Assembly (NCBI GenBank): GCA_038250515.1
Contig: JBBSCG010000002.1
Location: 4,825 to 68,824 of the forward strand
From: Candidatus Limnocylindria bacterium
Lineage (GTDB): Bacteria; Chloroflexota; Limnocylindria; QHBO01
Reading direction: 5' to 3'
Length of the DNA: 64,000 bases
Shown here: piece after piece, positions 3,391 through 58,720 of the stretch
How positions within the stretch are numbered: position 1 is the first letter of the stretch
Layout: every line of letters starts with the position of its first letter
The notes under the pieces: generated by a model
The model's database searches: none
Seen by the model: the letters and a program-made list of their open reading frames with translations, nothing else
Told to the model about the DNA's origin: nothing
Program-made: the position numbers and the translations under genes

Positions 3391-4611
3391 CTACAGTTGG
3401 TAGGCAATCTCGCCGTGCTGGGCAAGGTCGAGTCCGGTCTCCTCGGCTTGGCTGGCGACGCGGACGGGCACGATGAAATTGATGACGAGCAGGATGACGG
3501 TGGTGGCGACCGCCGAATAGATCGCCACCACCCCAACGGCGAACGCCTGGATGGCGAGCTGCGGCAGCCCGCCGTCGCGTCCCGCCGGATTCAGCGCCGC
3601 GGAGGCAAGGAGGCCGGTGGCCAGCGCCCCGAACGCGCCTCCCACCCCGTGGATCGCGAAGACGTCGAGCGCGTCGTCGACGCGTGAGCGCAGGCGCAGC
3701 TGCGTGGCCCCGTAGCACAGCACACCCACGCCGAAGCCGATCAGGATCGAGGCCGCCGGCGAGACATAGCCCGCGGCCGGCGTGATGGCCACCAGCCCGG
3801 CGACGGCTCCAACCGCCGCTCCGAGCACCGACGGCGTGCCGCGGTGCAGCCACGAGATGGTGACCCAGGTGAGCGCCGCCATGGCCGCGGCCGTGTTGGT
3901 TGTGACCAGCGCCAGAGCGGCGACGCCATTGGCCCCGAGCGCCGAGCCGGCGTTGAAGCCGAACCAGCCGAACCAGAGGAGGGCGGCGCCCAGGACGGTC
4001 ATCGTCACGTCATGCGGCTCCGTCGTCTGGCGAACCACGCCCAGCCGTCGCCCGACCACCAGCGCGGCGACCAGCGCCGCCACGCCCGACGAGAGGTGGA
4101 CGACGGTCCCGCCGGCGAAATCCAGCACGCCGAGGTGGGCGAGCCAGCCGTCGGGCGACCAGACCCAATGGGCGATCGGCGCATAGACGAGCGTGGACCA
4201 GGCCACACTGAAGAGGACGAACGCCTTGAATCGCTTGCGCTCGGCGAACGCGCCGGTGATCAGCGCCGGCGTGATGATCGCGAACATCATCTGGAAGGCC
4301 ATGAAGGCCAGGTGCGGGACGGTTGGCGCGTAGGTCGACGAGGGTGCTCCGGTCACGCCCTCCAGCCCTGCCCAGTCGAGGCGGCCGATGAGACCCAGAC
4401 CGGCATCGGGCCCGAAGGCCAGTGAGTAGCCCCACAGCACCCAGGTGACACTCACCAGGGCCAGGATGAAGAAGCTGTGCATGATCGTCGACAGCACGTT
4501 CTTGCGCCGCACCAGGCCGCCATAGAAGAAGGCGAGGCCAGGTGTCATGAGCATGACCATCGCCGTGGAGATCAGAATCCAGGCGGTGTCCCCTGCGTTG
4601 ATGGCACCCAT
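3391..4611 (-). CDS. amt: ammonium transporter (Amt/MEP family)
   Basis: 406 aa, about 11 TM segments. Amt signatures present (GLAFFYGGLVR, FQMMFAIITPALITGAFAER, DFAGGTVVH, DALDVFAIHGVGG). Confidence 0.92.
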   Translation of the reverse strand: MGAINAGDTAWILISTAMVMLMTPGLAFFYGGLVRRKNVLSTIMHSFFILALVSVTWVLWGYSLAFGPDAGLGLIGRLDWAGLEGVTGAPSSTYAPTVPHLAFMAFQMMFAIITPALITGAFAERKRFKAFVLFSVAWSTLVYAPIAHWVWSPDGWLAHLGVLDFAGGTVVHLSSGVAALVAALVVGRRLGVVRQTTEPHDVTMTVLGAALLWFGWFGFNAGSALGANGVAALALVTTNTAAAMAALTWVTISWLHRGTPSVLGAAVGAVAGLVAITPAAGYVSPAASILIGFGVGVLCYGATQLRLRSRVDDALDVFAIHGVGGAFGALATGLLASAALNPAGRDGGLPQLAIQAFAVGVVAIYSAVATTVILLVINFIVPVRVASQAEETGLDLAQHGEIAYQL

Positions 4612-4703
4612 CGCATCGGCTCCGTCATTGCGGATTATGCGAGCAGCCTAGGCTGCGCTCACCGCGCAGGCGAGGTGCTCCGCGGCCTTCCCAGCGCCGA
4701 ATG

Positions 4704-4722
4704 ATTGTGCAAAGTGCACAAT
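4704..4722. promoter_or_regulatory. AT-rich palindrome ATTGTGCA-AAG-TGCACAAT, candidate operator upstream of amt
   Basis: 8-bp perfect arms with a 3-nt spacer, about 95-110 nt upstream of the amt start, in an otherwise GC-rich 115-nt intergenic region. Confidence 0.3.
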
Positions 4723-4726
4723 CGGC

Positions 4727-5866
4727 TCAGATCCGGCGGGAGGCGAGCAGTTCAGAAGGGATCGTCCCCTGACCGATGATGGCGTCAGCGACCAGCGCCG
4801 CCGACGCAGGGCCTGTGGAGATGCCCCACGGTCCGTGGCCGGCGCACACGAACAGGCCCTCGACGCCATGGACGGGACCGATGAACGGACGCCCATCGTT
4901 TGACTGAGGACGGGCGCACATGCGCGTCTGCAGGACCTCGGCCGCGGTGATGGACGGCAGGAAGCGAAGCGCCCGCGAAAGAAGGAGGCGCGTGATCGCC
5001 GTCGGATCCGGCTCGCTCGGTAGGAAGGTCGATCCCAGCGTGCTGATCCCGTCCGCGCTGGCCATGCTGAACAGTGACTGCGGTTCGCCGTCGGCCTGTG
5101 ACGCGGCGCGTGCGGTGGCCGCCGCGGGACGGTTCACCGAATCGACCTCGTCCTCCTCGATGACGTGGCGCAACGGCTCGCTGAGGCGCAGCTGCACCGT
5201 GACGCCCCAGGTGGGATGAATCGGCCTCCAGGAGCCGGCCGAATCGACCAACGGCGGCGACCACGGACCGGCCGCCACCAGGACTGCGTTGGCGGTCAGC
5301 GTCGCGCCGTCACTCAATCGGAGGCCGCGCACCCGTCCGGCATCGATCCACGGCTCGGCACTCAGGCCGATGCGCAGCGTCGCCCCGTTGCGCACGGCCA
5401 GCGCGGCGTAGGCCGCCGTGGCGGAATCGGGCGGGATCGGGTAGCCCGTGGCCAGCCAGCAGGCGGAGAAGCCGGGAGCCAGGGCGGGCTCGGCATCGGC
5501 CAGCGAAGATTCGTCGAGGAAGGCAGGCTCGAGCTCGGGCGTCGCCGTCATGAAATGGGCCGCCTGCCGCCGAACCGCATCGGCCTCGCGGTTGAGCAGC
5601 AACAGGCCGGCAGGCTCGACCGGAACCGAGAAATCGGACGCGTCGTCGACCAGGCGGCGGTATCGGTCGAGGGAGTCGTGGTAGAGCGGCGCCAGAAGTG
5701 GGTCGAACGGATGCTGGATCACGCCCAGGTTGCGCCCGGAGGCGCCGGCACCGATCGCGGTTCGTTCGAGCAGGGTGACCGATGCGCCGCGCTCGGTCAG
5801 GAATGCGGCCGCGGCACAGCCGATGATGCCGCCGCCGATGATGGCGATGTCGGGGCTTCGGGACAC
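4727..5866 (-). CDS. FAD-dependent oxidoreductase (DAO / glycine-oxidase-like family)
   Basis: N-terminal dinucleotide fold DIAIIGGGIIGCAAAAFL...LLER, and a C-terminal GLFVCAGHGPWGIS motif typical of the DAO family. Confidence 0.8.
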   Translation of the reverse strand: MSRSPDIAIIGGGIIGCAAAAFLTERGASVTLLERTAIGAGASGRNLGVIQHPFDPLLAPLYHDSLDRYRRLVDDASDFSVPVEPAGLLLLNREADAVRRQAAHFMTATPELEPAFLDESSLADAEPALAPGFSACWLATGYPIPPDSATAAYAALAVRNGATLRIGLSAEPWIDAGRVRGLRLSDGATLTANAVLVAAGPWSPPLVDSAGSWRPIHPTWGVTVQLRLSEPLRHVIEEDEVDSVNRPAAATARAASQADGEPQSLFSMASADGISTLGSTFLPSEPDPTAITRLLLSRALRFLPSITAAEVLQTRMCARPQSNDGRPFIGPVHGVEGLFVCAGHGPWGISTGPASAALVADAIIGQGTIPSELLASRRI

Positions 5867-6477: not shown

Positions 6478-9893
<3,416 letters not shown>

Positions 9894-50359: not shown

Positions 50360-50533
50360 GCTGCCGCGAGAACGACGGCGACCAGCGCAAGCGCTGCCGG
50401 CAGCGCCTGAACGACGAGGATCCGTGGCGACACGGTGATCGCTCCATGGCGCGGCCGGGTCCGCTTCGAATGTCGCGATCGCATGGCCGCGGAGTTCGGG
50501 CGCGCGGCGACTGCGTGCGATAATCGAGCGGAT

Positions 50534-52042
50534 ATGACGCTCACCAAGAAGTCCGAGACGCCACCCGCGACTGCCTCGTGGGGACTGGCGGCGGGCAAAC
50601 ACGTGCCGTGGGAGTACGCATCGGCACCTGAGTCGACCGATCACGTTCAGATCAGGCCCGAGTACGGCCTGTTCATCGGCAACGAGTTCGTGGCGGCGAA
50701 GCCGAAGCGCACCTTCGAGGTCATCAACCCCGCCACCGAAGAGGTCCTGGCCAGGGTCGCTCGCGCCTCGACGGCCGATGTCGACCGAGCCGTGAAGGCG
50801 GCCCGCCTGGGCTACAGCCAGACCTGGTCGAAGCTGGCGGGCAGCGAGCGGGCGAAGTACCTGTATCGGATCGCGCGGATCATCCAGGAGCGCAGCCGCG
50901 AGTTCGCCGTGGTCGAGACGCTCAACTCGGGCAAGCCGATCAAGGAGAGCCGCGACGTTGACGTGCCGCTGGCCGCGGCGCATTTCTTCTACTACGCCGG
51001 CTGGGCCGACAAGCTCGAGTACGCCTTCCCGAACCGCACGCCGCGCTCGCTGGGCGTCGCCGCGCAGATCATCCCGTGGAACTTTCCGCTGATGATGCTG
51101 GCCTGGAAGATCGCGCCCGCACTGGCTGCCGGCAACACGGTCGTGCTGAAGCCGGCATCCACCACGCCGCTGACCGCCTACCTGTTCGCCGATGTCGTTC
51201 GCCAGGCGGAACTGCCGCCGGGCGTGGTCAACATCATCACCGGGCCGGGTGAGATCGGCATGGACCTGGTCAAGCATCCGGACGTCAACAAGGTCGCGTT
51301 CACCGGGTCGACGGCGGTCGGCAAGATGATCGCCCGTGCCGTCGCAGGGTCCGAGAAGAAGCTGACGCTCGAGCTCGGCGGCAAGGCGGCGAATATCGTC
51401 TTCGACGACGCGCCGATCGACCAGGCGATCGAGGGCATCATCAACGGTATCTACTTCAACCAGGGCGAGGTGTGCTGTGCCGGGTCGCGGCTCTTCGTGC
51501 AGGAGAGCGTCTACGAGCCGCTGCTCGACAAGCTCAAGGCGCGCCTCTCGACGCTGCGCGTGGGCGATCCGCTCGACAAGAACACCGACGTCGGCGCGAT
51601 CAACTCGGCGGGGCAACTGGCCAAGATCCAGGAGCTGGTGGCGAGCGGCATCGCCGAGGGCGCCGAGATCTTCCAGCCGGACTGCAGGTTGCCGGATCGC
51701 GGCTTCTTCTTCGTGCCGACCCTGTTCACCGGGGTGAGCCAGAGCCATCGGATCGCGCAGGAAGAGATCTTCGGTCCGGTGCTGTCGGTGCTCACCTTCC
51801 GCACGCCTGACGAGGCGATCGAAAAGGCGAACAACACGCCGTACGGCCTGTCCGCCGGGGTGTGGACCGAGAAGGGCAGCCGCATCTTCAAGATGGCGGC
51901 CGCCATGCGCGCCGGGGTCATCTGGGCGAACACCTTTAACCGATTCGACCCGACCTCGCCATTCGGCGGCTACAAGGAGTCGGGCTACGGCCGCGAGGGC
52001 GGGCTGCACGGCCTGGCCGCGTACCTTCGGCTCGACGCATGA
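50534..52042 (+). CDS. NAD(P)-dependent aldehyde dehydrogenase
   Basis: IIPWNFPL, FTGSTAVGK, LELGGKAA, and catalytic GEVCCAGSR. Confidence 0.92.
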   Translation: MTLTKKSETPPATASWGLAAGKHVPWEYASAPESTDHVQIRPEYGLFIGNEFVAAKPKRTFEVINPATEEVLARVARASTADVDRAVKAARLGYSQTWSKLAGSERAKYLYRIARIIQERSREFAVVETLNSGKPIKESRDVDVPLAAAHFFYYAGWADKLEYAFPNRTPRSLGVAAQIIPWNFPLMMLAWKIAPALAAGNTVVLKPASTTPLTAYLFADVVRQAELPPGVVNIITGPGEIGMDLVKHPDVNKVAFTGSTAVGKMIARAVAGSEKKLTLELGGKAANIVFDDAPIDQAIEGIINGIYFNQGEVCCAGSRLFVQESVYEPLLDKLKARLSTLRVGDPLDKNTDVGAINSAGQLAKIQELVASGIAEGAEIFQPDCRLPDRGFFFVPTLFTGVSQSHRIAQEEIFGPVLSVLTFRTPDEAIEKANNTPYGLSAGVWTEKGSRIFKMAAAMRAGVIWANTFNRFDPTSPFGGYKESGYGREGGLHGLAAYLRLDA

Positions 52043-53013
52043 GTCCACGCACGGCCACGAAGTCGCGCTCGCGCGCATCGGTCCTCGAAGACAGACCGAT
52101 GTCTCCGCTGGCGACGTCTGCCAACGGCACCTCCGCTGATCGGATCGGGGTGCGAAAGACGTACAAGCTGTACATTGGGGGTGCCTTCCCGAGGACGGAG
52201 TCCGGGCGGTCCTACGAGATCTTCGATTCGCGCGGCATGCTGTTGGCCAACGCCTGCCGCGGCACGCGCAAGGACATTCGCGATGCGGTACGCGCGGCGC
52301 GCAAGGCGTTCCCCGACTGGTGGAAGAAGACCGCCTACAACCGCTCGCAGATCCTGTATCGCATCGCCGAGCTGATGGAGGGGCGACGCGACCAGTTCAT
52401 CACCGAGGTGCAGGCGGCCCAGGGCGTCGGCCGTCGTCGGGCGATGCGCGAGGTCGACGCGGCCATCGATCGCTGGGTGTGGTACGCCGGCTGGGCCGAC
52501 AAGTTCAGCCAGATGGTCGGATCCGTCAACCCGGTCAATGGCTCGTACTTCAACTTCACGGTACCCGAGCCCACCGGCGTGGTCGGCGTGATCGCACCGG
52601 AGGAGTCGTCGCTGCTCGGCCTGGTGAGTCGTCTCGCGCCAGTGATCGTGAGCGGAAATGCCGCAATCGTGGTCGCGAGCGAGTCGCGGCCGTTGCCCGC
52701 CGTGACGCTCACCGAGGTGCTTGCCACCTCCGATGTGCCGGGCGGGGTCGTCAACCTGGTCACCGGACTTCGCCGGGAGGTGGTGCCCGCGCTGGCTGCG
52801 CACATGGACGTCAACGCGCTCGACGCCTTCGGCGTCGCACCCTCAGAGGCCGCCGCGGTCGAGGAGAGTGGCGTGGAGAACGTCAAGCGCGTCGTCCGCC
52901 CGCCGGCCGCCGGGCTCGAGCGTTACGACTGGTTCAGCGCGCGCGCGCAGTCGCCGTACCTGATCGGCCAGTACACCGAGACCAAGACGGTCTGGCACCC
53001 CATCGGCGCCTAG
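52039..53013 (+). CDS. aldehyde-dehydrogenase-like protein lacking the catalytic domain
   Basis: The ALDH N-terminus (KTYKLYIGGAF), cofactor-domain strands and C-terminal YTETKTVW are present. ELGGK and the catalytic Cys loop are absent, and the protein is only 324 aa. The ATGA overlap with the full-length ALDH gives one start; the alternative start is 52099. Confidence 0.7.
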   Translation: MSPRTATKSRSRASVLEDRPMSPLATSANGTSADRIGVRKTYKLYIGGAFPRTESGRSYEIFDSRGMLLANACRGTRKDIRDAVRAARKAFPDWWKKTAYNRSQILYRIAELMEGRRDQFITEVQAAQGVGRRRAMREVDAAIDRWVWYAGWADKFSQMVGSVNPVNGSYFNFTVPEPTGVVGVIAPEESSLLGLVSRLAPVIVSGNAAIVVASESRPLPAVTLTEVLATSDVPGGVVNLVTGLRREVVPALAAHMDVNALDAFGVAPSEAAAVEESGVENVKRVVRPPAAGLERYDWFSARAQSPYLIGQYTETKTVWHPIGA

Positions 53014-54329
53014 TCTCCGAAGAGGCCGAGCCAACCGGCGAGCGTCGAGCCGAACAGCACCAGCGTCAGGGCGACGACCAGGCCGGTGAGGCCCCAGGCG
53101 ACGACGTTCAGCCACCACGGGTTGACTTGGCTGCCCATGATCCGTGGGTTGTTCACCAGGCGCAGCATGAAGATCAGGATGATCGGCAGCAGGATGCCGT
53201 TCAGGCTCTGGCTGAGGATGATCAGGCCGGTCAGCGGCATGCCCGGGACGAGCACGACCAGTGCCCCGATGACGATCAGCGCCGTGTACAGGCCCATGAA
53301 GACCGGTGCCTCCCGGAATCGACGGGACACGCCGGACTCCCAGCCGAACGACTCGCAGACGGTGTAGCTGGTGGTCAGCGGCATGACCGTCGCCGCCAGG
53401 ACCGATGCGCCGAACAGCCCGAATGCGAACAGGGCCGAGGCGAATCCACCGGCGACGGGAGCGAGGGCCGTGGCCGCCTGCTCGGCGCTGGTCAGCACGA
53501 TTCCGGTTCCGAACAGCGTGGCGGCGGTGACGATTACGATGAACATGGCAATCACGTTGGTCCACACCGCACCCAGGATGGCGTCCGCGCGTTCGTAGGT
53601 GAGCTCCTCCGGACCGAGGCCCTTGTCGGCCACCGACGATTGCAGGTAGAAGAACATGTACGGCGTCACCGTCGTGCCGACGGTCGTCACCATCAGCAGC
53701 AGCAGGGTCGGCTCGAAGCTGAGCGAAGGCGAGACGAGCGCTCGTCCGACCTCGCCCCAGTCGGGGCCCGCGACGAAGGTGCTCACGACATACGCCAGGA
53801 AGACCACCGCGACGCTCAGGAAGACGCGCTCGACCAGCCGGTATGAGCCGAACACGACGAGCGCCCAGATGCCGGCCGCGACCACCGGGACGCTGATCCA
53901 GCGCGGAATATCAAAGATCTCGAGAGCAGCCGCCGCTCCGGCAAACTCGGCCGCGATGTTCGAGCCGTTGGCGATCAGCAGCACCACCATGGCAAGCAGG
54001 GTCCAGCGGATGCCGAAGTCGTCCCGGATCAGGTCGCCCAGTCCCTGGCCCGAGACGGCGCCCATGCGCGCCGCCATCTCGAGGACGACGATCAGCATGA
54101 CGGTCGTGATCGGCAAGATCCAGAGCAGGCTCAGGCCGGTTTCCGCGCCCAGCTTGCTGTAGGTCAGGATTCCGCCCGCGTCGTTGCCGGCCAGACCGGC
54201 GACGAGCCCGGGACCGAGCACGCCGAGGAAGGCCAGCACACCTGACCGATGCACCCGAAAGTTCGGCAGACGCTCCCGCACCGAGCGCTGGGCACGCCGA
54301 ACCGGGCGCGGCAGCGCCAGACGGCTCAC
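53010..54329 (-). CDS. NRAMP-family transporter with NRMT-like (Mg-type) binding-site substitutions
   Basis: 11-12 TM NRAMP fold. The TM1 motif reads GNDAGG instead of DPGN, and the TM6 motif reads TTVTPYMF instead of A..MPHN. Confidence 0.85.
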   Translation of the reverse strand: MSRLALPRPVRRAQRSVRERLPNFRVHRSGVLAFLGVLGPGLVAGLAGNDAGGILTYSKLGAETGLSLLWILPITTVMLIVVLEMAARMGAVSGQGLGDLIRDDFGIRWTLLAMVVLLIANGSNIAAEFAGAAAALEIFDIPRWISVPVVAAGIWALVVFGSYRLVERVFLSVAVVFLAYVVSTFVAGPDWGEVGRALVSPSLSFEPTLLLLMVTTVGTTVTPYMFFYLQSSVADKGLGPEELTYERADAILGAVWTNVIAMFIVIVTAATLFGTGIVLTSAEQAATALAPVAGGFASALFAFGLFGASVLAATVMPLTTSYTVCESFGWESGVSRRFREAPVFMGLYTALIVIGALVVLVPGMPLTGLIILSQSLNGILLPIILIFMLRLVNNPRIMGSQVNPWWLNVVAWGLTGLVVALTLVLFGSTLAGWLGLFGD

Positions 54330-55594
54330 CGATCCTCCGCCCGTTCGAAGATCTCGGGCAGGCGCCTGCGCCAGCTCTCGCCAAGCGCTCGCTCGAAGGC
54401 GTCGTCGACGGTGACCATGCCGAGCATGCGTCCTTCGTCGTCGACGACCGGCAGCGCCAGCAGGTTATAGCGCGCGATGGCTGCCCCAACCTGCTCGGCG
54501 TCGAGATCCGCGGCGACCGAGATCGGCTCGGGTCGCATGAACTGGAGCACCGGTGTGTCCGGCGACGCGACGATCAAACCGCGCAGGGTGACGGTGCCTT
54601 CGAGGTGGCCGTCGGCATCGGTCACGTAGAGGTAGTAGGCGCGGTCCGCGGGGGGAGCGAGCTTGCGCAGCCGGTCGATCACCTGCTGCGCCGTCTCGTC
54701 GGGCGTGATGGTGATGAAGTCAGTCGTCATCAGCCCGCCGGCCGTCTCCTCGCCATAGGCCAACAGCTCGCGCACGTCCTGGGCGTCCTCGGGCCGCATG
54801 AGGCCCAGGAGCTCCGCCTGACGCTCCTTGGAGAGGTCGGCCATCAGGTCGGCCGCCTCGTCGGGGCCCATCTCCTCGAGGATGTCGGCGGCACGCTCCG
54901 GCGGCAACGCCTCGAGCACGTCGACCTGGTCTTCGGCGTCGAGCTCCTCCATGACGTCCGCCGCGCGCTCGTCGTCGAGCGAGGCGAGGATGCCGGTCCG
55001 GTCACGCGGCGCGAGCTGCTCGACAATGTGCGCCACGTCGGCTGGGTGCAGGGTTGACAGCGCCTGGTGCGGCACACGCAGCTTCAGCGAGCTGACGCTC
55101 GACTCGACCGGGTCGACCTCCTCCCATTCGATGTAGTTCTCGACCTCGAGCCGAAGCGCGCGGGCGAGGCGCTCGCCGGGACCAGAGAGGCCGAGGCGGC
55201 GCAGGATGCCGGCCAGCCCGACGTCGACGGCCACCAGCCGCACGCGGCCGCGCACGGAGGCGAGCTGGATGTCGTTGACGCGCACGATCTTGCGGCCCTC
55301 GACGTCGATGATCTGCTTGTCCTGCAGGTCGAGCCACAGACGGATCTCGTTCGGCCGGCGCCGGAAGGCGGTGATGTTGATGCTCGACGTGCGCAGGCGG
55401 GCCCCGGACACGTCGAACTCGAAGACGTCGGACCAAGGCAGGAAGATGTCGCGCCCGCCGGTGACACGAACCACCAGGCCCGTGACGGGCGGGTACTTCT
55501 CACCGAGCGCGACGATCAGGTCGCGCACCTTGCCGAAGGGCTCGCCGTGACGGTCGAGCACCGGCCTGCCGATGATCTGGCTCAGGAAGAGCAT
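54326..55594 (-). CDS. soluble PRC-barrel + MgtE N-domain + CBS-pair protein (no MgtE membrane domain)
   Basis: N-terminal PRC-barrel-like repeats (IIGRPVLDRHGEPFGKVRDL). MgtE_N acidic helical repeat (DVMEELDAEDQVDVLEALPPERAADILEEM). Two CBS motifs. The protein ends about 25 aa after the CBS pair. Its stop overlaps the NRAMP start. Confidence 0.85.
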   Translation of the reverse strand: MLFLSQIIGRPVLDRHGEPFGKVRDLIVALGEKYPPVTGLVVRVTGGRDIFLPWSDVFEFDVSGARLRTSSINITAFRRRPNEIRLWLDLQDKQIIDVEGRKIVRVNDIQLASVRGRVRLVAVDVGLAGILRRLGLSGPGERLARALRLEVENYIEWEEVDPVESSVSSLKLRVPHQALSTLHPADVAHIVEQLAPRDRTGILASLDDERAADVMEELDAEDQVDVLEALPPERAADILEEMGPDEAADLMADLSKERQAELLGLMRPEDAQDVRELLAYGEETAGGLMTTDFITITPDETAQQVIDRLRKLAPPADRAYYLYVTDADGHLEGTVTLRGLIVASPDTPVLQFMRPEPISVAADLDAEQVGAAIARYNLLALPVVDDEGRMLGMVTVDDAFERALGESWRRRLPEIFERAEDR

Positions 55595-55869
55595 GAAATG
55601 ACCACCTCGCTCTCAAGGGTGCTGCGCACGCGAGCGGGTGGTCGTATCGATCGCGGGGAGCTGCGGCGTCGCTATCGACGCTGGGCGTTCACCTCGCGCA
55701 CGGGCCATCCACCACGGGCGCGGTCATTGCGTCCATTGGGGCGTCTACTGGGTTCGGCGTCCACGTTGGTCGCGCGTTGCCTCGTTGCGTATTCCGTTCC
55801 GGTGGCGCAGCCGCGCCAAGCCGGCGTCATTGTAGCCCGATCGATCGGGCTGACCCGTGGCTGTATCGG

Positions 55870-56499
55870 CTATGCCCTTGGTCCTTCGCCTCGTGCGCGT
55901 GCGCGGTGGCGCGCCACCTTGGCCTGGTTGCCGCAGGTGCGCATGTGGCACCAGCGCCGGCGGCCGGTCGGGGATCGGTCGACGAAAACGAATCGGCAGC
56001 CCGGATTGGCGCAGACCCGCAGCCGGTCGGCGGCATCATCGGCCAGGAAGTGGGCGAACGAGCTCGCAATCGTGGCCCGCGCCTGATCGAGGCGGTCGCC
56101 GACCTGCGCGAACGCGTAGCGCGTGCCATCCGGATCGAAGCGCAGCTGGTGGTAGTGCAGGCCGTGCCGCAGGATGTGATTGAGGTCGCGCAGTTGTGAC
56201 TTGGTCGGCTGCCCACCATGATCGACGCGCTCCGCGACGTCGTGCAGTACCGCGCGCAGATGGCGGAAGCGGTCGAGTCGGCGATCTGCCTCTTCTGGCT
56301 CACGGCGCAGTCGGGAACCCTCGGTCGCCCGGCCGCGGTCGCTGATCAGGTCGTGCTCGCGGAGCCAGGCGAGCAGCGCGCCGGTGTCCGGAAGCGCGTC
56401 GACCGGTTCGCCGTGCTCGTATTCGAGGGTATTGGCGAACTCGACGAAGAGCTTGTCCGAGTGGTCAGGCTCGGGCATCGTATCGTGGTTCAGGCTCAT
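55870..56499 (-). CDS. CGNR zinc-finger (ABATE-family) protein
   Basis: C-terminal CANPGCRFVFVDRSPTGRRRWCHMRTCGNQAKV. Start set to MSLNHD at 56499. Confidence 0.82.
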   Translation of the reverse strand: MSLNHDTMPEPDHSDKLFVEFANTLEYEHGEPVDALPDTGALLAWLREHDLISDRGRATEGSRLRREPEEADRRLDRFRHLRAVLHDVAERVDHGGQPTKSQLRDLNHILRHGLHYHQLRFDPDGTRYAFAQVGDRLDQARATIASSFAHFLADDAADRLRVCANPGCRFVFVDRSPTGRRRWCHMRTCGNQAKVARHRARARGEGPRA

Positions 56500-56502
56500 G
56501 AC

Positions 56503-56585
56503 GTAACCATTGTACCCCACTTGACAAGTTACGGCGCCAGGCGTAGAGTCTGCATGTAACCGCTTAACAGGTGGATACAAGTTAC
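56503..56585. promoter_or_regulatory. two tandem operator-like units GTAACC-N15-ACAAGTTAC (GTAAC-N20-GTTAC), 53-bp period
   Basis: Unit 1 spans 56503-56532 and unit 2 spans 56556-56585. They lie in the divergent region between the CGNR gene and the small-ORF operon. Confidence 0.45.
56521..56549 (+). promoter_or_regulatory. sigma-70-like promoter TTGACA-17 nt-TAGAGT
   Basis: Perfect -35 hexamer at 56521-56526, a 17-nt spacer, and a -10-like TAGAGT at 56544-56549, about 65 nt upstream of the first small ORF. Confidence 0.4.
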
Positions 56586-56612
56586 TAGAGCGTCGCGAGG
56601 AGGTCGAGTCCC

Positions 56613-56723
56613 ATGTCGTTGCTTCTGATCCTCGGGATCATCTTTGCGCTCGGCGTTGCCGGCGCGCTCCTTGGCTGCGACAGCCGGCCCGGGGCCGCTG
56701 ACGGACAGCGTCTCAACATCTGA
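56613..56723 (+). CDS. 36-aa membrane/lipoprotein-like micropeptide (MSLLLILGIIFALGVAGALLGCDSRPGAADGQRLNI)
   Basis: My own translation. GAGGAGG lies 8 nt upstream of the ATG. Hydrophobic helix ending in an LLGC lipobox-like motif. Confidence 0.4.
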   Translation: MSLLLILGIIFALGVAGALLGCDSRPGAADGQRLNI

Positions 56724-56742
56724 ACCTTTCTAGGAGGCAAGC

Positions 56743-56898
56743 ATGTCCAGCTACTGGGAGATGCAAGCCGAGCTGCGTCAGCAGGAGCTGCTCGATGATG
56801 CGAAATCGCGTCGCATCTCGCTGGTTCCCAGGCGCCGGCGACGAGGCAGGATCTTCAACCTGACTCTGCCGCGTGTCCGACGCAGCCGGGCTCGCTAG
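56743..56898 (+). CDS. 51-aa highly basic peptide (MSSYWEMQAELRQQELLDDAKSRRISLVPRRRRRGRIF...)
   Basis: My own translation. TAGGAGG lies 6 nt upstream of the ATG. Followed by a strong hairpin. Confidence 0.4.
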   Translation: MSSYWEMQAELRQQELLDDAKSRRISLVPRRRRRGRIFNLTLPRVRRSRAR

Positions 56899-56915
56899 CT
56901 CCACTACATCGACCG

Positions 56916-56954
56916 AAACAGCCCGCTCCATCCGGAGCGGGCTGTTTGGCTTCT
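56916..56954 (+). terminator. intrinsic-terminator-like hairpin
   Basis: A 14-bp perfect stem, AAACAGCCCGCTCC / GGAGCGGGCTGTTT, with a 4-nt loop, followed by GGCTTCT (a weak U tract). Confidence 0.55.
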
Positions 56955-57010
56955 AGAATGGCTTGATGCCTCGACCACGTTCCGCGCCACGCAGCAGCGA
57001 CGAGGGCGTG

Positions 57011-58720
57011 ATGAGCAATGCCGATCTCGCGCGGATCTTCGGCGAGATCGCCGACATGCTCGAGATCCTCGGCGAGGTCGTCTACAAGTCGGTGGCGTAT
57101 CGCCGGGTGGCGGATGCGGTGGAGCGCTATCCCGACGATGTCGCGGCGCTCTTCCGGCGCGGCGTGCCGCCCAAGCTTTCGGGCGCCGGTCCGGCACTCA
57201 CCGCCAAGCTCGCCGAGCTGGCCGCGACGGGCGGCCTCGAGTATCACCAGCGCCTGCGCGCGCAGGTCCCCGATGGGTTGCTCGACATGCTGCGCATCTC
57301 CGGCGTCGGCCCGCGCACCGTGAAGCTGCTGCACGGCGAGCTGGGCATCGACTCGATCGAGGCGCTGCGCGCCGCCGCAGAGCTTGGCTCGCTGCGCAAC
57401 ATCAAGGGCCTCTCCGCCAAGACCGAGGAGAACATCCTGGCGGGGATCGCGCGGGTCGAGCAGCGCAGCACCCGCCTGCTGCTGCACGACGCCGACGAGC
57501 TGATGAGCCGCCTCGTCGCCCTCCTGGCACAGACTCCCGGAGTGGTGCAGATCCAGGCGGCCGGCTCGCTGCGGCGCCGGCGTTCAACGATCGGCGACCT
57601 CGACCTGCTCGCCGCCGTCACCGATCCGCCAGCGCTGATCGCCGCGCTTGACGGCCTGCCCGAGATAGACCACATCGTCTCGGCCGGCACGGACAAGTCG
57701 AGCATCGTGCTGCGTGACGGACCACAGGTCGACCTGATGGTCTGCCCGCCGGCGGCGTGGGGCACGCACCTCGTTCATTTCACCGGGAGCAAGGAGCATA
57801 ACGTCGCCCTCCGCGGCCGGGCGCTGGCGCGAGGGTGGTCACTGTCGGAGAAGGGCTTCAAGGTGGTCGACGACGGTCGATTGCTGCTGGCTGCGACCGA
57901 AGAGGAGGTCTATGCCCGGCTCGATCTCGCATGGGTGCCGCCGGAGCTGCGCGAGGACGGCGGTGAGATCCAGGCCGCCGCCAGCGGAACGCTGCCACAG
58001 CTCGTCACGCTCGACGACGTCCGCGGCGATACGCATACCCATTCTGATTGGACCGACGGCGTGGACGGCGTCGAGACCATGGCCCGCGCGGCGCAAAGCC
58101 TCGGACGCGAATGGATGGTGCTTACCGACCACTCCCCGTCGCTCGGGATCGCACGTGGTCTCGCGCCAGAACGGGTGGCGCAGCAGCGCGATCTCATCGG
58201 CCGCCTGAATGTGGAGATGGCGCCATTTCGGATCCTGCACGGCACCGAGATGGAGATTCGCTCCGACGGCTCGCTGGACTATCCCGATGAGCTGCTGCGC
58301 ACCTTCGACGTCGTCGTGGCAAGCCTCCATACCGGGCGTGGACAATCGACGGAGCAGCTCACCCGGCGGGCCCTGTCGGCCATCGGCAACCCGCACGTCG
58401 ACATCCTGGCGCATCCCACCGGCCGGATCGTCAATCGCCGCGAGGCGATGGTCCTCGATTGGCCGCGCGTCTTCGAGGCCGCCGCCGCGACGGGTACGAT
58501 CCTCGAGATGAACGGCAGCCCCCGGCTTGACCTCGATGATGCGCTCGCTCGCGCCGCGGGCGTGGCGGGCGTTCGGCTGACCGTGGCCAGCGATGCGCAT
58601 CGGACCGAGGAGCTCGGACAGCTGCGCTATGCGGTGTCGATGGCGCGCCGCGCCTGGCTCGGCGCCGATCAGATCGTCGCGACCCGATCGGCGGACGCGC
58701 TGCTTGAGCTCGTCAGATGA
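57011..58720 (+). CDS. polX: DNA polymerase X family protein with C-terminal PHP domain
   Basis: HhH N-terminus (NADLARIFGEIADMLE), pol-beta palm (GSLRRRRSTIGDLDLL), and PHP metal ligands (GDTHTHSDWTDG...HTGRG...ASDAH). Confidence 0.9.
   Translation: MSNADLARIFGEIADMLEILGEVVYKSVAYRRVADAVERYPDDVAALFRRGVPPKLSGAGPALTAKLAELAATGGLEYHQRLRAQVPDGLLDMLRISGVGPRTVKLLHGELGIDSIEALRAAAELGSLRNIKGLSAKTEENILAGIARVEQRSTRLLLHDADELMSRLVALLAQTPGVVQIQAAGSLRRRRSTIGDLDLLAAVTDPPALIAALDGLPEIDHIVSAGTDKSSIVLRDGPQVDLMVCPPAAWGTHLVHFTGSKEHNVALRGRALARGWSLSEKGFKVVDDGRLLLAATEEEVYARLDLAWVPPELREDGGEIQAAASGTLPQLVTLDDVRGDTHTHSDWTDGVDGVETMARAAQSLGREWMVLTDHSPSLGIARGLAPERVAQQRDLIGRLNVEMAPFRILHGTEMEIRSDGSLDYPDELLRTFDVVVASLHTGRGQSTEQLTRRALSAIGNPHVDILAHPTGRIVNRREAMVLDWPRVFEAAAATGTILEMNGSPRLDLDDALARAAGVAGVRLTVASDAHRTEELGQLRYAVSMARRAWLGADQIVATRSADALLELVR

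Follow-up and report, generated by a model that had tools for sequence, protein, structure and literature searches.

Gene organization of the locus

The window analysed here is a stretch of 64,000 nucleotides (nt) from a soil Chloroflexota bacterium (assembly GCA_038250515.1, contig JBBSCG010000002.1), with a G+C content of about 68%, and its nearest relatives are metagenome-assembled genomes (MAGs) of the Chloroflexota 'Candidatus Limnocylindria'. On its minus strand we found two overlapping genes, one for a soluble protein with the sensor domains of the Mg2+ channel MgtE and one for a transporter of unrelated fold. The upstream gene (54326..55594) encodes 422 amino acids (aa); its product, called the partner below, contains by Pfam a PRC barrel, an MgtE_N domain and a CBS pair, followed by a basic tail, and has no transmembrane (TM) domain. 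The downstream gene (53010..54329) encodes 439 aa, a member of the SLC11/NRAMP family (Pfam Nramp, E = 5e-88) that was assigned to the NRMT clade and matched the structure 7QIA. The start codon GTG of the transporter gene and the stop codon TGA of the partner gene share the sequence GTGA (54326..54329, minus strand), a 4-nt overlap, and both reading frames and their overlap lie where the preliminary description of this DNA had put them. Since start and stop overlap in this way, translational coupling of the two genes is suggested; the position of the junction is repeated in most of the Limnocylindria relatives. The window locus is a member, from a new phylum, of a two-gene system that was already known.

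The NRMT transporter

The best PDB match of the transporter was EleNRMT of Eggerthella lenta (7QIA, E = 1.5e-107, ungapped over 396 residues), with 45% identity in a pairwise alignment counted over all 439 columns. The MntH/NRAMP structures matched at E = 1e-22 or worse, and the NCBIfam MntH model gave 133 bits against a cut-off of 430, so that by both scores the transporter is nearer in sequence to the characterised NRMT than to MntH/NRAMP.

The metal-site motif of helix 1 is D50-A-G-G53 (54171..54182, minus strand), canonically D-P-G-N, and that of helix 6 is T219-T-V-T222-P-Y224 (53658..53675, minus strand), canonically A-x-x-M-P-H. In the HMMER alignment to the canonical NRAMP structure 10ky_A, DAGG stood opposite DPGN and TTVTPY opposite AVVMPH; therefore Asn is changed to Gly, Ala to Thr, Met to Thr and His to Tyr. 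The Asn to Gly and Met to Thr changes, together with His to Tyr, had been read correctly in the preliminary description, which did not mention the additional Ala to Thr. In the alignment to EleNRMT, D50-A-G-G53 was opposite D55-A-G-G58, and T219-T-V-T222 was opposite T224-T-I-A227.

The published signature of NRMTs is DxxG in helix 1 and TxxA/T in helix 6, while classical NRAMPs have DxxN and A/CxxM (Ramanadane et al. 2022, PMC8806188). The window transporter carries the NRMT signature in the variant DxxG-TxxT. All 105 NRMT sequences compared had DxxG-TxxA/T (TxxT in 66, TxxA in 39), and 103 of them had precisely DAGG; because the signature is common to the whole set, the window transporter is a typical member. 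It has Thr at both helix-6 positions, T219 corresponding to EleNRMT T224 and T222 at the Met position. T224 of EleNRMT, which takes the canonical Ala position, is the Thr that was functionally tested, and the T224A mutant had no detectable Mg2+ transport (PMC8806188). Residues E128 and Q374 of the window transporter are the conserved E133 (helix 3) and Q379 (helix 10) of EleNRMT, and the His positions of helix 6b are occupied by Y224 and L229, the proton-coupling His being gone.

The window transporter thus shares with EleNRMT (7QIA, 7QIC, 7QJI and 7QJJ) the DAGG motif, the Thr at the T224 position, the helix-3 Glu, the helix-10 Gln and the lack of a relay His. It differs at the Met position, which is Ala in EleNRMT (TxxA) and Thr here (TxxT), and at the first helix-6b His, which is Trp in EleNRMT and Tyr here. 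Judged from its sequence it is an NRMT-clade SLC11 protein, because of the 7QIA match, the DxxG-TxxA/T signature, the kept E128 and Q374 and the replaced helix-6b His. The NRMT type named in the preliminary description is in agreement with this assignment, the 7QIA E-value of 1.5e-107 comparing with about 1e-22 for MntH. Transport of Mg2+, and probably of Mn2+ as well, is predicted for it.

The partner protein

Pfam placed the PRC barrel of the partner at aa 2-60 (E = 2e-12), MgtE_N at aa 182-283 (E = 3e-28) and two CBS domains (E = 2e-20) after it. There was no Pfam match to the MgtE TM domain (PF01769), and the protein ends 20 residues past the second CBS domain. The NCBIfam mgtE equivalog model TIGR00400 scored 168 bits, below its cut-off of 232.75, and covered profile positions 24-249 of 450. 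Because of the missing PF01769 match, the early end and the low TIGR00400 score, the partner is not an MgtE channel. Residues 172-402 matched 2yvy, the cytosolic domain of Thermus thermophilus MgtE, at E = 2e-44, and the AlphaFold2 model of the partner (mean pLDDT 76.8) had 2yvy as its top Foldseek match (E = 1e-21, TM-score 0.80 on the target). The partner is therefore an MgtE cytosolic sensor module without membrane domain, just as the preliminary description had it.

The 'PRC-barrel repeats' of the preliminary description held for the first repeat and less clearly for the second. PRC-barrel 1 (aa 1-67; 55394..55594, minus strand) scored 47.3 bits with PF05239 (cut-off 21.2) and was modelled as a beta-barrel with pLDDT 78-92. 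The second, divergent PRC-like beta unit, which is followed by the helix motif 'VDVG.AG(I/L)LRRLG' (aa 83-135 together; 55190..55348, minus strand), gave a Pfam match below the cut-off over aa ~83-125 (E = 0.015, 15.8 bits), and its strands were modelled with low to moderate confidence (pLDDT 51-77). A separate model of the N-terminal part found solely PRC-barrel proteins in Foldseek (CdpB1/B2, RimM, reaction-centre H subunit and MTH1859; E = 2e-4 to 1e-2), the alignments to archaeal CdpB1/B2 extending over ~150 columns with rmsd 8-13 A.

The segment of aa 83-135 had a mean column conservation of 0.71, the highest of all partner segments, and Q94, D97, G100, R105, N107, D108, G129 and R132 were invariant in 14 partner sequences from different phyla. 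Since this is the most conserved stretch of the partner across phyla, the second PRC-like unit (PRC2) with 'VDVG.AGLLRRLG' points to a functional surface.

The MgtE N-domain (aa 176-285; 54740..55069, minus strand) is very acidic in translation, with many D and E residues, and carries D213, D245 and D249. The CBS pair (aa 286-402; 54389..54739, minus strand), delimited by Pfam and the 2yvy alignment, carries N377, D398 and E401. In place of the acidic plug helix and the TM domain of MgtE, the partner has a C-terminal basic tail, ALGESWRRRLPEIFERAEDR (aa 403-422; 54329..54388, minus strand), with a motif, W(R/K)(R/K)RLP, that Chloroflexota and a number of further lineages have kept.

We found 7079 homologues of the partner at E <= 1e-10, and its length was constant at ~418-424 aa over hundreds of clusters of 58-92% identity. 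The partner is a constant four-part protein of ~420 aa with a conserved PRC module, and more than a fragment of MgtE. Public labels of such proteins without TM domain include 'magnesium transporter', 'Mg/Co/Ni transporter MgtE', 'flagellar motility protein MotE' and 'CBS domain-containing protein'. To call a soluble partner a transporter or MotE is misleading, and 'magnesium transporter' is wrong for the forms without TM domain.

Counterparts of the MgtE Mg2+ ligands in the partner

The Mg2+ sites of T. thermophilus MgtE (TtMgtE) comprise E258 (Mg2), D259 (Mg3), D91 and D247 (Mg4), D226 and D250 (Mg5), D95 (Mg6) and E59 (Mg7) (PMC5882242). We mapped these ligands onto 95 partner-family members from the fetched loci. 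The Mg6 ligand D95, which is D249 in the window partner, was kept in 95/95 members. The Mg4 ligands D91 and D247, corresponding to D245 and D398, were each kept in 79/95, and in 15 sequences, all from one Syntrophales/Smithella clade, D245 and D398 were lost jointly, probably in a single event. At Mg7 the window partner has D213 for E59, and the position was acidic in 94/95. At Mg5, D250 is replaced by E401 (E or D in 87/95) and D226 by N377. By ungapped extension past residue 402, the plug-helix ligands E258 and D259 (Mg2 and Mg3) would fall opposite the basic tail, with TtMgtE beyond residue 251 taken in the sequence that we assume for it. The partner thus retains the clamp sites (Mg4, Mg6, Mg7 and part of Mg5), whose acidic residues in MgtE close the N-domain on the CBS pair at high cytosolic Mg2+, and it appears to be without those of the plug helix, which in MgtE form the bridge to the pore.

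Conservation of the gene pair

The partner gene lay directly upstream of the NRMT gene in all 26 evaluable loci of close Limnocylindria relatives. A scan seeded with the NRMT alignment gave 80 loci from about ten phyla, of which one was at a contig edge and 79 were evaluable; 74 of these 79 had a PRC-MgtE_N-CBS gene directly upstream of NRMT. The lineages represented were Chloroflexota, Syntrophales, Bacillota, Myxococcota, Acidobacteriota, Bacteroidota, Armatimonadota, Saccharimonadales, Margulisbacteria and Actinomycetota. The scan seeded with EleNRMT, also of 80 loci, gave 74 complete partners and four partial ones cut by contig ends, that is, 78/80. The co-occurrence of NRMT and MgtE_N-CBS genes, which the preliminary description had named as a check, is borne out by these counts. 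Partner and NRMT were the sole unit that persisted, no other neighbour being conserved beyond the close relatives. The pairing is beyond chance by a wide margin: in many phyla the two genes have stayed together as a pair whose translation appears to be coupled.

Five loci (L065, L072, L090, L099 and L103) contained an NRMT with the full DxxG-TxxA/T signature without partner gene within 4 kb upstream, and three of these five had Asn, not Glu, at the helix-3 position of EleNRMT E133. Orphan soluble partners with no NRMT within 4-5 kb were also observed (L028 at 3947-5263, L225, L238, L253, L262, L266, L267 and L271); the gene downstream of the orphan in L028 encodes a phosphoribosyltransferase. 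In L045 (2492-3758) the partner was split over two overlapping frames, a PRC part and an MgtE_N-CBS part, which may come from a frameshift, from faulty assembly or from a true two-gene split as in Clostridium acetobutylicum. In the search with the PRC region, the best 150 representatives included no natural fusion of partner and NRMT, and the longest protein among them had 656 aa.

C-terminal variants and full-length relatives

A search with the PRC region alone gave 902 representative clusters at E <= 1e-10, among them a class of ~600 aa besides that of ~420 aa. The proteins of the ~600-aa class are complete MgtE channels, in which the PRC tandem is joined by the Pfam MgtE TM domain (PF01769), such as P0263, P0278, P0279, P0284, P0321, P0348 and P0381 and those of loci L195-L209. 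Because these relatives combine the same PRC tandem with an MgtE TM domain, the partner seems to descend from a PRC-bearing MgtE subfamily that lost its pore domain.

Four C-terminal forms could be distinguished. PRC-MgtE with a recognisable TM domain occurred in nine loci, of which four had an adjacent NRMT, four were standalone and one was not evaluable; the standalone genes came from Ktedonobacterales, Dictyobacter alpinus and Slackia heliotrinireducens, and others lay directly upstream of NRMT. A degenerate multi-TM tail occurred in 16 loci (Atopobium, Olsenella and Collinsella) and a single C-terminal TM helix in eight loci of Eggerthellaceae, the family of EleNRMT. NRMT was adjacent in every locus of these two forms, so that membrane-anchored partners adjoined NRMT in 24/24 loci. 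The soluble form with a short tail occurred in 43 loci, 32 of them with an adjacent NRMT and 11 without. Taken together, the relatives form a series from the full PRC-MgtE channel through multi-TM and single-TM forms to the soluble partner.

The single predicted TM helix (…KLGLKIAGVALVAVLVLALYTLVLFQII…) was seen in L118 (Raoultibacter) and L212-L229 (Eggerthellaceae). In L177, L180, L193 and L228-L263 (Coriobacteriales, Atopobium, Olsenella and Collinsella) a tail of ~215 aa with 4-5 hydrophobic segments follows an MgtE-like 'DVLEEEH.EDLQ'. We considered this Coriobacteriia tail as an MgtE pore and rejected it: it had no Pfam PF01769 match and no PDB sequence match, and a hidden Markov model built from full-length PRC-MgtE proteins detected it in few loci only.

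Upstream region and riboswitches

Neither an M-box (RF00380) nor any other relevant element was detected when 52500-57500 was scanned with Rfam by E-value, so that the intergenic region upstream of the partner gene (55595..55869, minus strand) holds no Rfam element. Riboswitch control at the window locus was rejected on this ground. A simple promoter and terminator scan of the minus strand found no promoter-like site and nothing useful.

For the MgtE-like fragments associated with NrmT, an upstream M-box is a frequent feature and not a defining one. It was present upstream of the partner gene in 3/15 diverse loci, and all three were Bacillota. Because the M-box precedes the partner gene there, the whole operon is tied to Mg2+ in Bacillota, a link between M-box and Mg2+ operon that was also drawn by Shin et al. 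(PMC4072509). In one Clostridia MAG (L096) a c-di-AMP riboswitch (RF00379, 84.9 bits) was found at 8111-8263 on the minus strand, ~3 kb downstream of an M-box partner-NRMT operon.

Comparison with known systems

Shin et al. (2014, PLoS Genet, PMC4072509) reported a homologue of the MgtE cytoplasmic domain next to most NrmT genes, and for this 'MgtE-like fragment' a part in cytoplasmic feedback regulation or as a metal chaperone was their speculation. Both the pairing and the feedback hypothesis were therefore published in 2014, and the statement in the preliminary description that such a pairing was not known to be characterised is fair for the characterisation but not for the pairing. The window locus resembles those NrmT operons in having an MgtE-cytoplasmic-domain homologue immediately upstream of an Nramp-related gene of the NrmT branch. 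It differs in belonging to Chloroflexota, in having no M-box and in encoding the partner as a single 422-aa protein; in C. acetobutylicum (Ca_c0685) the MgtE-like gene is split in two, and it was not needed for complementation (PMC4072509).

EleNRMT was characterised alone, while relatives of it up to 96% identical have an upstream partner, which ends in one predicted TM helix and not in a basic tail. Compared with T. thermophilus MgtE (2YVX, 2ZY9 and 2YVY), the window partner has a homologous N-domain and CBS pair with the acidic ligands of Mg4, Mg6 and Mg7 kept, but it lacks the TM pore, has Asn for D226 and carries an extra N-terminal PRC module of 170 aa. The full-length PRC-MgtE proteins (P0284 and P0278; L195, L197, L200 and L201; Slackia, Ktedonobacterales and Dictyobacter) share its PRC tandem, MgtE_N and CBS pair; they retain the PF01769 TM domain, absent from the window partner, and can stand alone. 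In CorC/CNNM proteins too, according to PDB titles, a Mg2+ transport domain is controlled by a cytosolic CBS pair with Mg2+ and/or ATP as ligand, but there the CBS pair and the transporter it serves are one fused protein, whereas in the window the CBS pair is a separate polypeptide beside a transporter of unrelated fold.

In the literature searched we found no description of PRC-MgtE channels and no paper treating MgtE together with a PRC barrel. In the text available of the EleNRMT paper (PMC8806188) MgtE was named only as an unrelated transporter and the words 'operon' and 'CBS' did not occur; 'CBS' was likewise not found in the available text of Shin et al. (PMC4072509), nor MgtE, by term search, in that of the 2022 Cellier review. 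No later work on the partner was recognised from titles in the literature from 2015 onwards. The N-terminal PRC module of the partner seems, as far as these partial sources go, previously undescribed. What appears to go beyond the literature searched is that a PRC module is always present on the partner, that the N-domain/CBS ligands are kept and the plug-helix ones are not, and that the relatives form a series from channel to soluble protein.

Proposed function and alternative explanations

Among the known bacterial importers of Mg2+, NRMTs make up the fourth class; they appear to be uncoupled uniporters. MgtE and CorA channels have built-in cytosolic Mg2+ sensors that shut them. A separate sensor protein that is linked to NRMT near-universally is the obvious candidate for keeping NRMT from overloading the cell. 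This partner has been known as a neighbour gene since 2014, yet the structural and biochemical studies of EleNRMT did not include it. The locus itself will not surprise a specialist; the question of the role of the partner is real and directly testable.

We propose that the widened all-oxygen site (DxxG/TxxT) without proton-relay His would support uncoupled, membrane-potential-driven uptake of hydrated Mg2+, probably also of Mn2+, as in EleNRMT. The partner would dimerise through its CBS pairs and dock on the cytoplasmic face of NRMT through the PRC2/'LLRRLG' surface, the basic tail or both. Rising cytosolic Mg2+ (possibly Mg-ATP) would then clamp the N-domain onto the CBS pair, and the partner would change shape and throttle NRMT. 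Such a protein-level negative feedback on an otherwise ungated uniporter may be, outside Bacillota, the counterpart of the RNA-level M-box within Bacillota. In other lineages the same partner has a single TM helix or several TM segments at its C-terminus, which speaks for action close to the membrane. The binding and gating of NRMT by the partner is the step that we infer here. Taken as a whole and with the feedback mechanism included, the picture of an operon of the kind described by Shin et al. 2014, in which two genes serve the uptake of divalent cations, with a transporter of Mg2+ type and the partner as cytosolic feedback sensor, seems to us evenly poised between right and wrong. The observation of the preliminary description is thus confirmed, and its interpretation, a sensor regulating an unrelated transporter, is partly supported.

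If the partner gates NRMT, the pair would show clearly that a regulatory module can pass from one transporter fold to an unrelated one, and the kinetics and structures of NRMTs would have to be read differently. A stronger form of the proposal makes the partner an obligatory NRMT subunit, derived from a pore-less PRC-MgtE, with the clamp re-used to gate a LeuT/NRAMP fold by direct contact through PRC2/LLRRLG and the tail or anchor. We consider this form plausible and on balance a little doubtful. Were it true, the published biochemistry and structures of NRMT, obtained with EleNRMT alone, would describe the unregulated half of a native complex, and the series from MgtE through multi-TM and single-TM to soluble forms would record the stepwise capture of the sensor of one transporter by another.

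Several points weigh against feedback gating of NRMT by the partner. Interaction with NRMT, or regulation of it, has been demonstrated in the literature for no member. The NrmT of C. acetobutylicum alone complemented a Mg2+-transport mutant (PMC4072509), and EleNRMT alone transports in proteoliposomes (PMC8806188). The riboswitch-less NrmT of A. capsulatum rescued a Mn2+ uptake mutant fully and a Mg2+ mutant only at millimolar levels, and co-expression of its partner (the Acp2976-Acp2977 pair) gave no better Mg2+ rescue (PMC4072509). The latter result is no refutation, because a negative regulator is not expected to improve rescue at limiting Mg2+. The window locus is without M-box, like that of A. 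capsulatum. Among the genes themselves, 5/79 evaluable NRMT loci had no partner and 11/43 soluble partners had no NRMT nearby; the Mg5 ligand D226 is replaced by Asn in the window partner and in 73/95 members; and the PRC2 fold was modelled with low confidence. Since MgtE channels of full length that stand alone carry the PRC tandem too, this tandem is no adaptor specific to NRMT.

The case of A. capsulatum, with an adjacent partner, no riboswitch and a preference for Mn2+, fits another explanation, in which the operon mainly imports Mn2+ or another transition metal and the partner senses that metal or a general signal such as adenine nucleotides. Transport of Mn2+ as well as Mg2+ by EleNRMT (PMC8806188), the missing M-box of the window and its TxxT in place of the TxxA of EleNRMT would fit, and MgtE CBS domains bind ATP (title of PDB 5x9g). 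The NRMT signature is nevertheless tied to Mg2+ transport, T219 being the counterpart of the T224 whose change to Ala abolished detectable Mg2+ transport, and there is no soft thioether ligand to favour transition metals. The partner also keeps Mg2+-binding residues of MgtE, and Bacillota loci of the same two-gene layout stand behind Mg2+ riboswitches. We regard a system mainly for Mn2+ as rather unlikely, though it is the weightiest of the alternatives. The partner might instead be a positive factor, either a metal chaperone or buffer at the cytoplasmic exit, as Shin et al. had considered, or a tether that helps the transporter to assemble or keeps it stable. For this speak the very acidic MgtE_N region and the fold matches to RimM and the reaction-centre H subunit, whose PRC barrels serve in protein docking or assembly. 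But Mg2+ is abundant and needs no chaperone, NRMTs work alone in heterologous hosts and liposomes, partner co-expression brought no gain in Mg2+ rescue, and conservation falls specifically on residues of the regulatory clamp of MgtE, all of which makes a positive role improbable.

The two proteins could also make no contact at all, the partner being an independent sensor of Mg2+ or nucleotides (acting, for example, on ribosomes through its PRC barrels) and the synteny reflecting co-regulation only. The soluble partners without NRMT nearby, one of them beside a phosphoribosyltransferase gene, the five NRMT genes without partner and the PRC barrel of the ribosome-maturation factor RimM would agree with this. 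Against it, about ten phyla have preserved the immediate adjacency, the order and frequently the 4-nt overlap, with all other neighbours changing, a pattern usual for subunits that interact physically, and the lineage-specific membrane anchors always co-occur with NRMT; we hold the absence of contact to be quite improbable. Finally, the full-length PRC-MgtE relatives, and the TM tails so degenerate that Pfam does not recognise them as MgtE, could suggest that the partner is a functionless remnant of a decaying MgtE. Because the frame is intact and of constant length in hundreds of clusters, with many residues invariant across phyla and with 7079 homologues, purifying selection and not decay is indicated. 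A pseudogene is effectively refuted by these conservation data, and we give this explanation hardly any credence.

Flanking genes

Upstream of the partner gene, at a distance of 275 nt and on the same strand, lies a gene for an ABATE and CGNR zinc-finger protein (55870-56580, minus strand), a putative stress-induced regulator. The CGNR zinc-finger gene was found at the same position in all close Limnocylindria loci and not in the distant partner-NRMT loci. On the plus strand, an ORF of 585 aa at 56963-58720 adjoins the locus and is conserved in relatives; it is a putative family-X DNA polymerase (PolX) with PHP domain, a label taken from reading its sequence alone.

On the other side, a full-length aldehyde dehydrogenase (ALDH) of 535 aa is encoded at 50435-52042 on the plus strand. 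It overlaps by 4 nt with the next gene (52039-53013, plus strand), whose 324-aa product matches the N-terminal half of the ALDH profile only (positions 17-232 of 461). A third component of the system was sought among the CGNR/ABATE, PolX and ALDH-like genes and rejected, these being conserved among close Limnocylindria only and absent from the distant partner-NRMT loci. The 324-aa ALDH-like gene is kept at 74-90% identity in the relatives, and its stop codon overlaps that of the NRMT gene convergently at 53010-53013.

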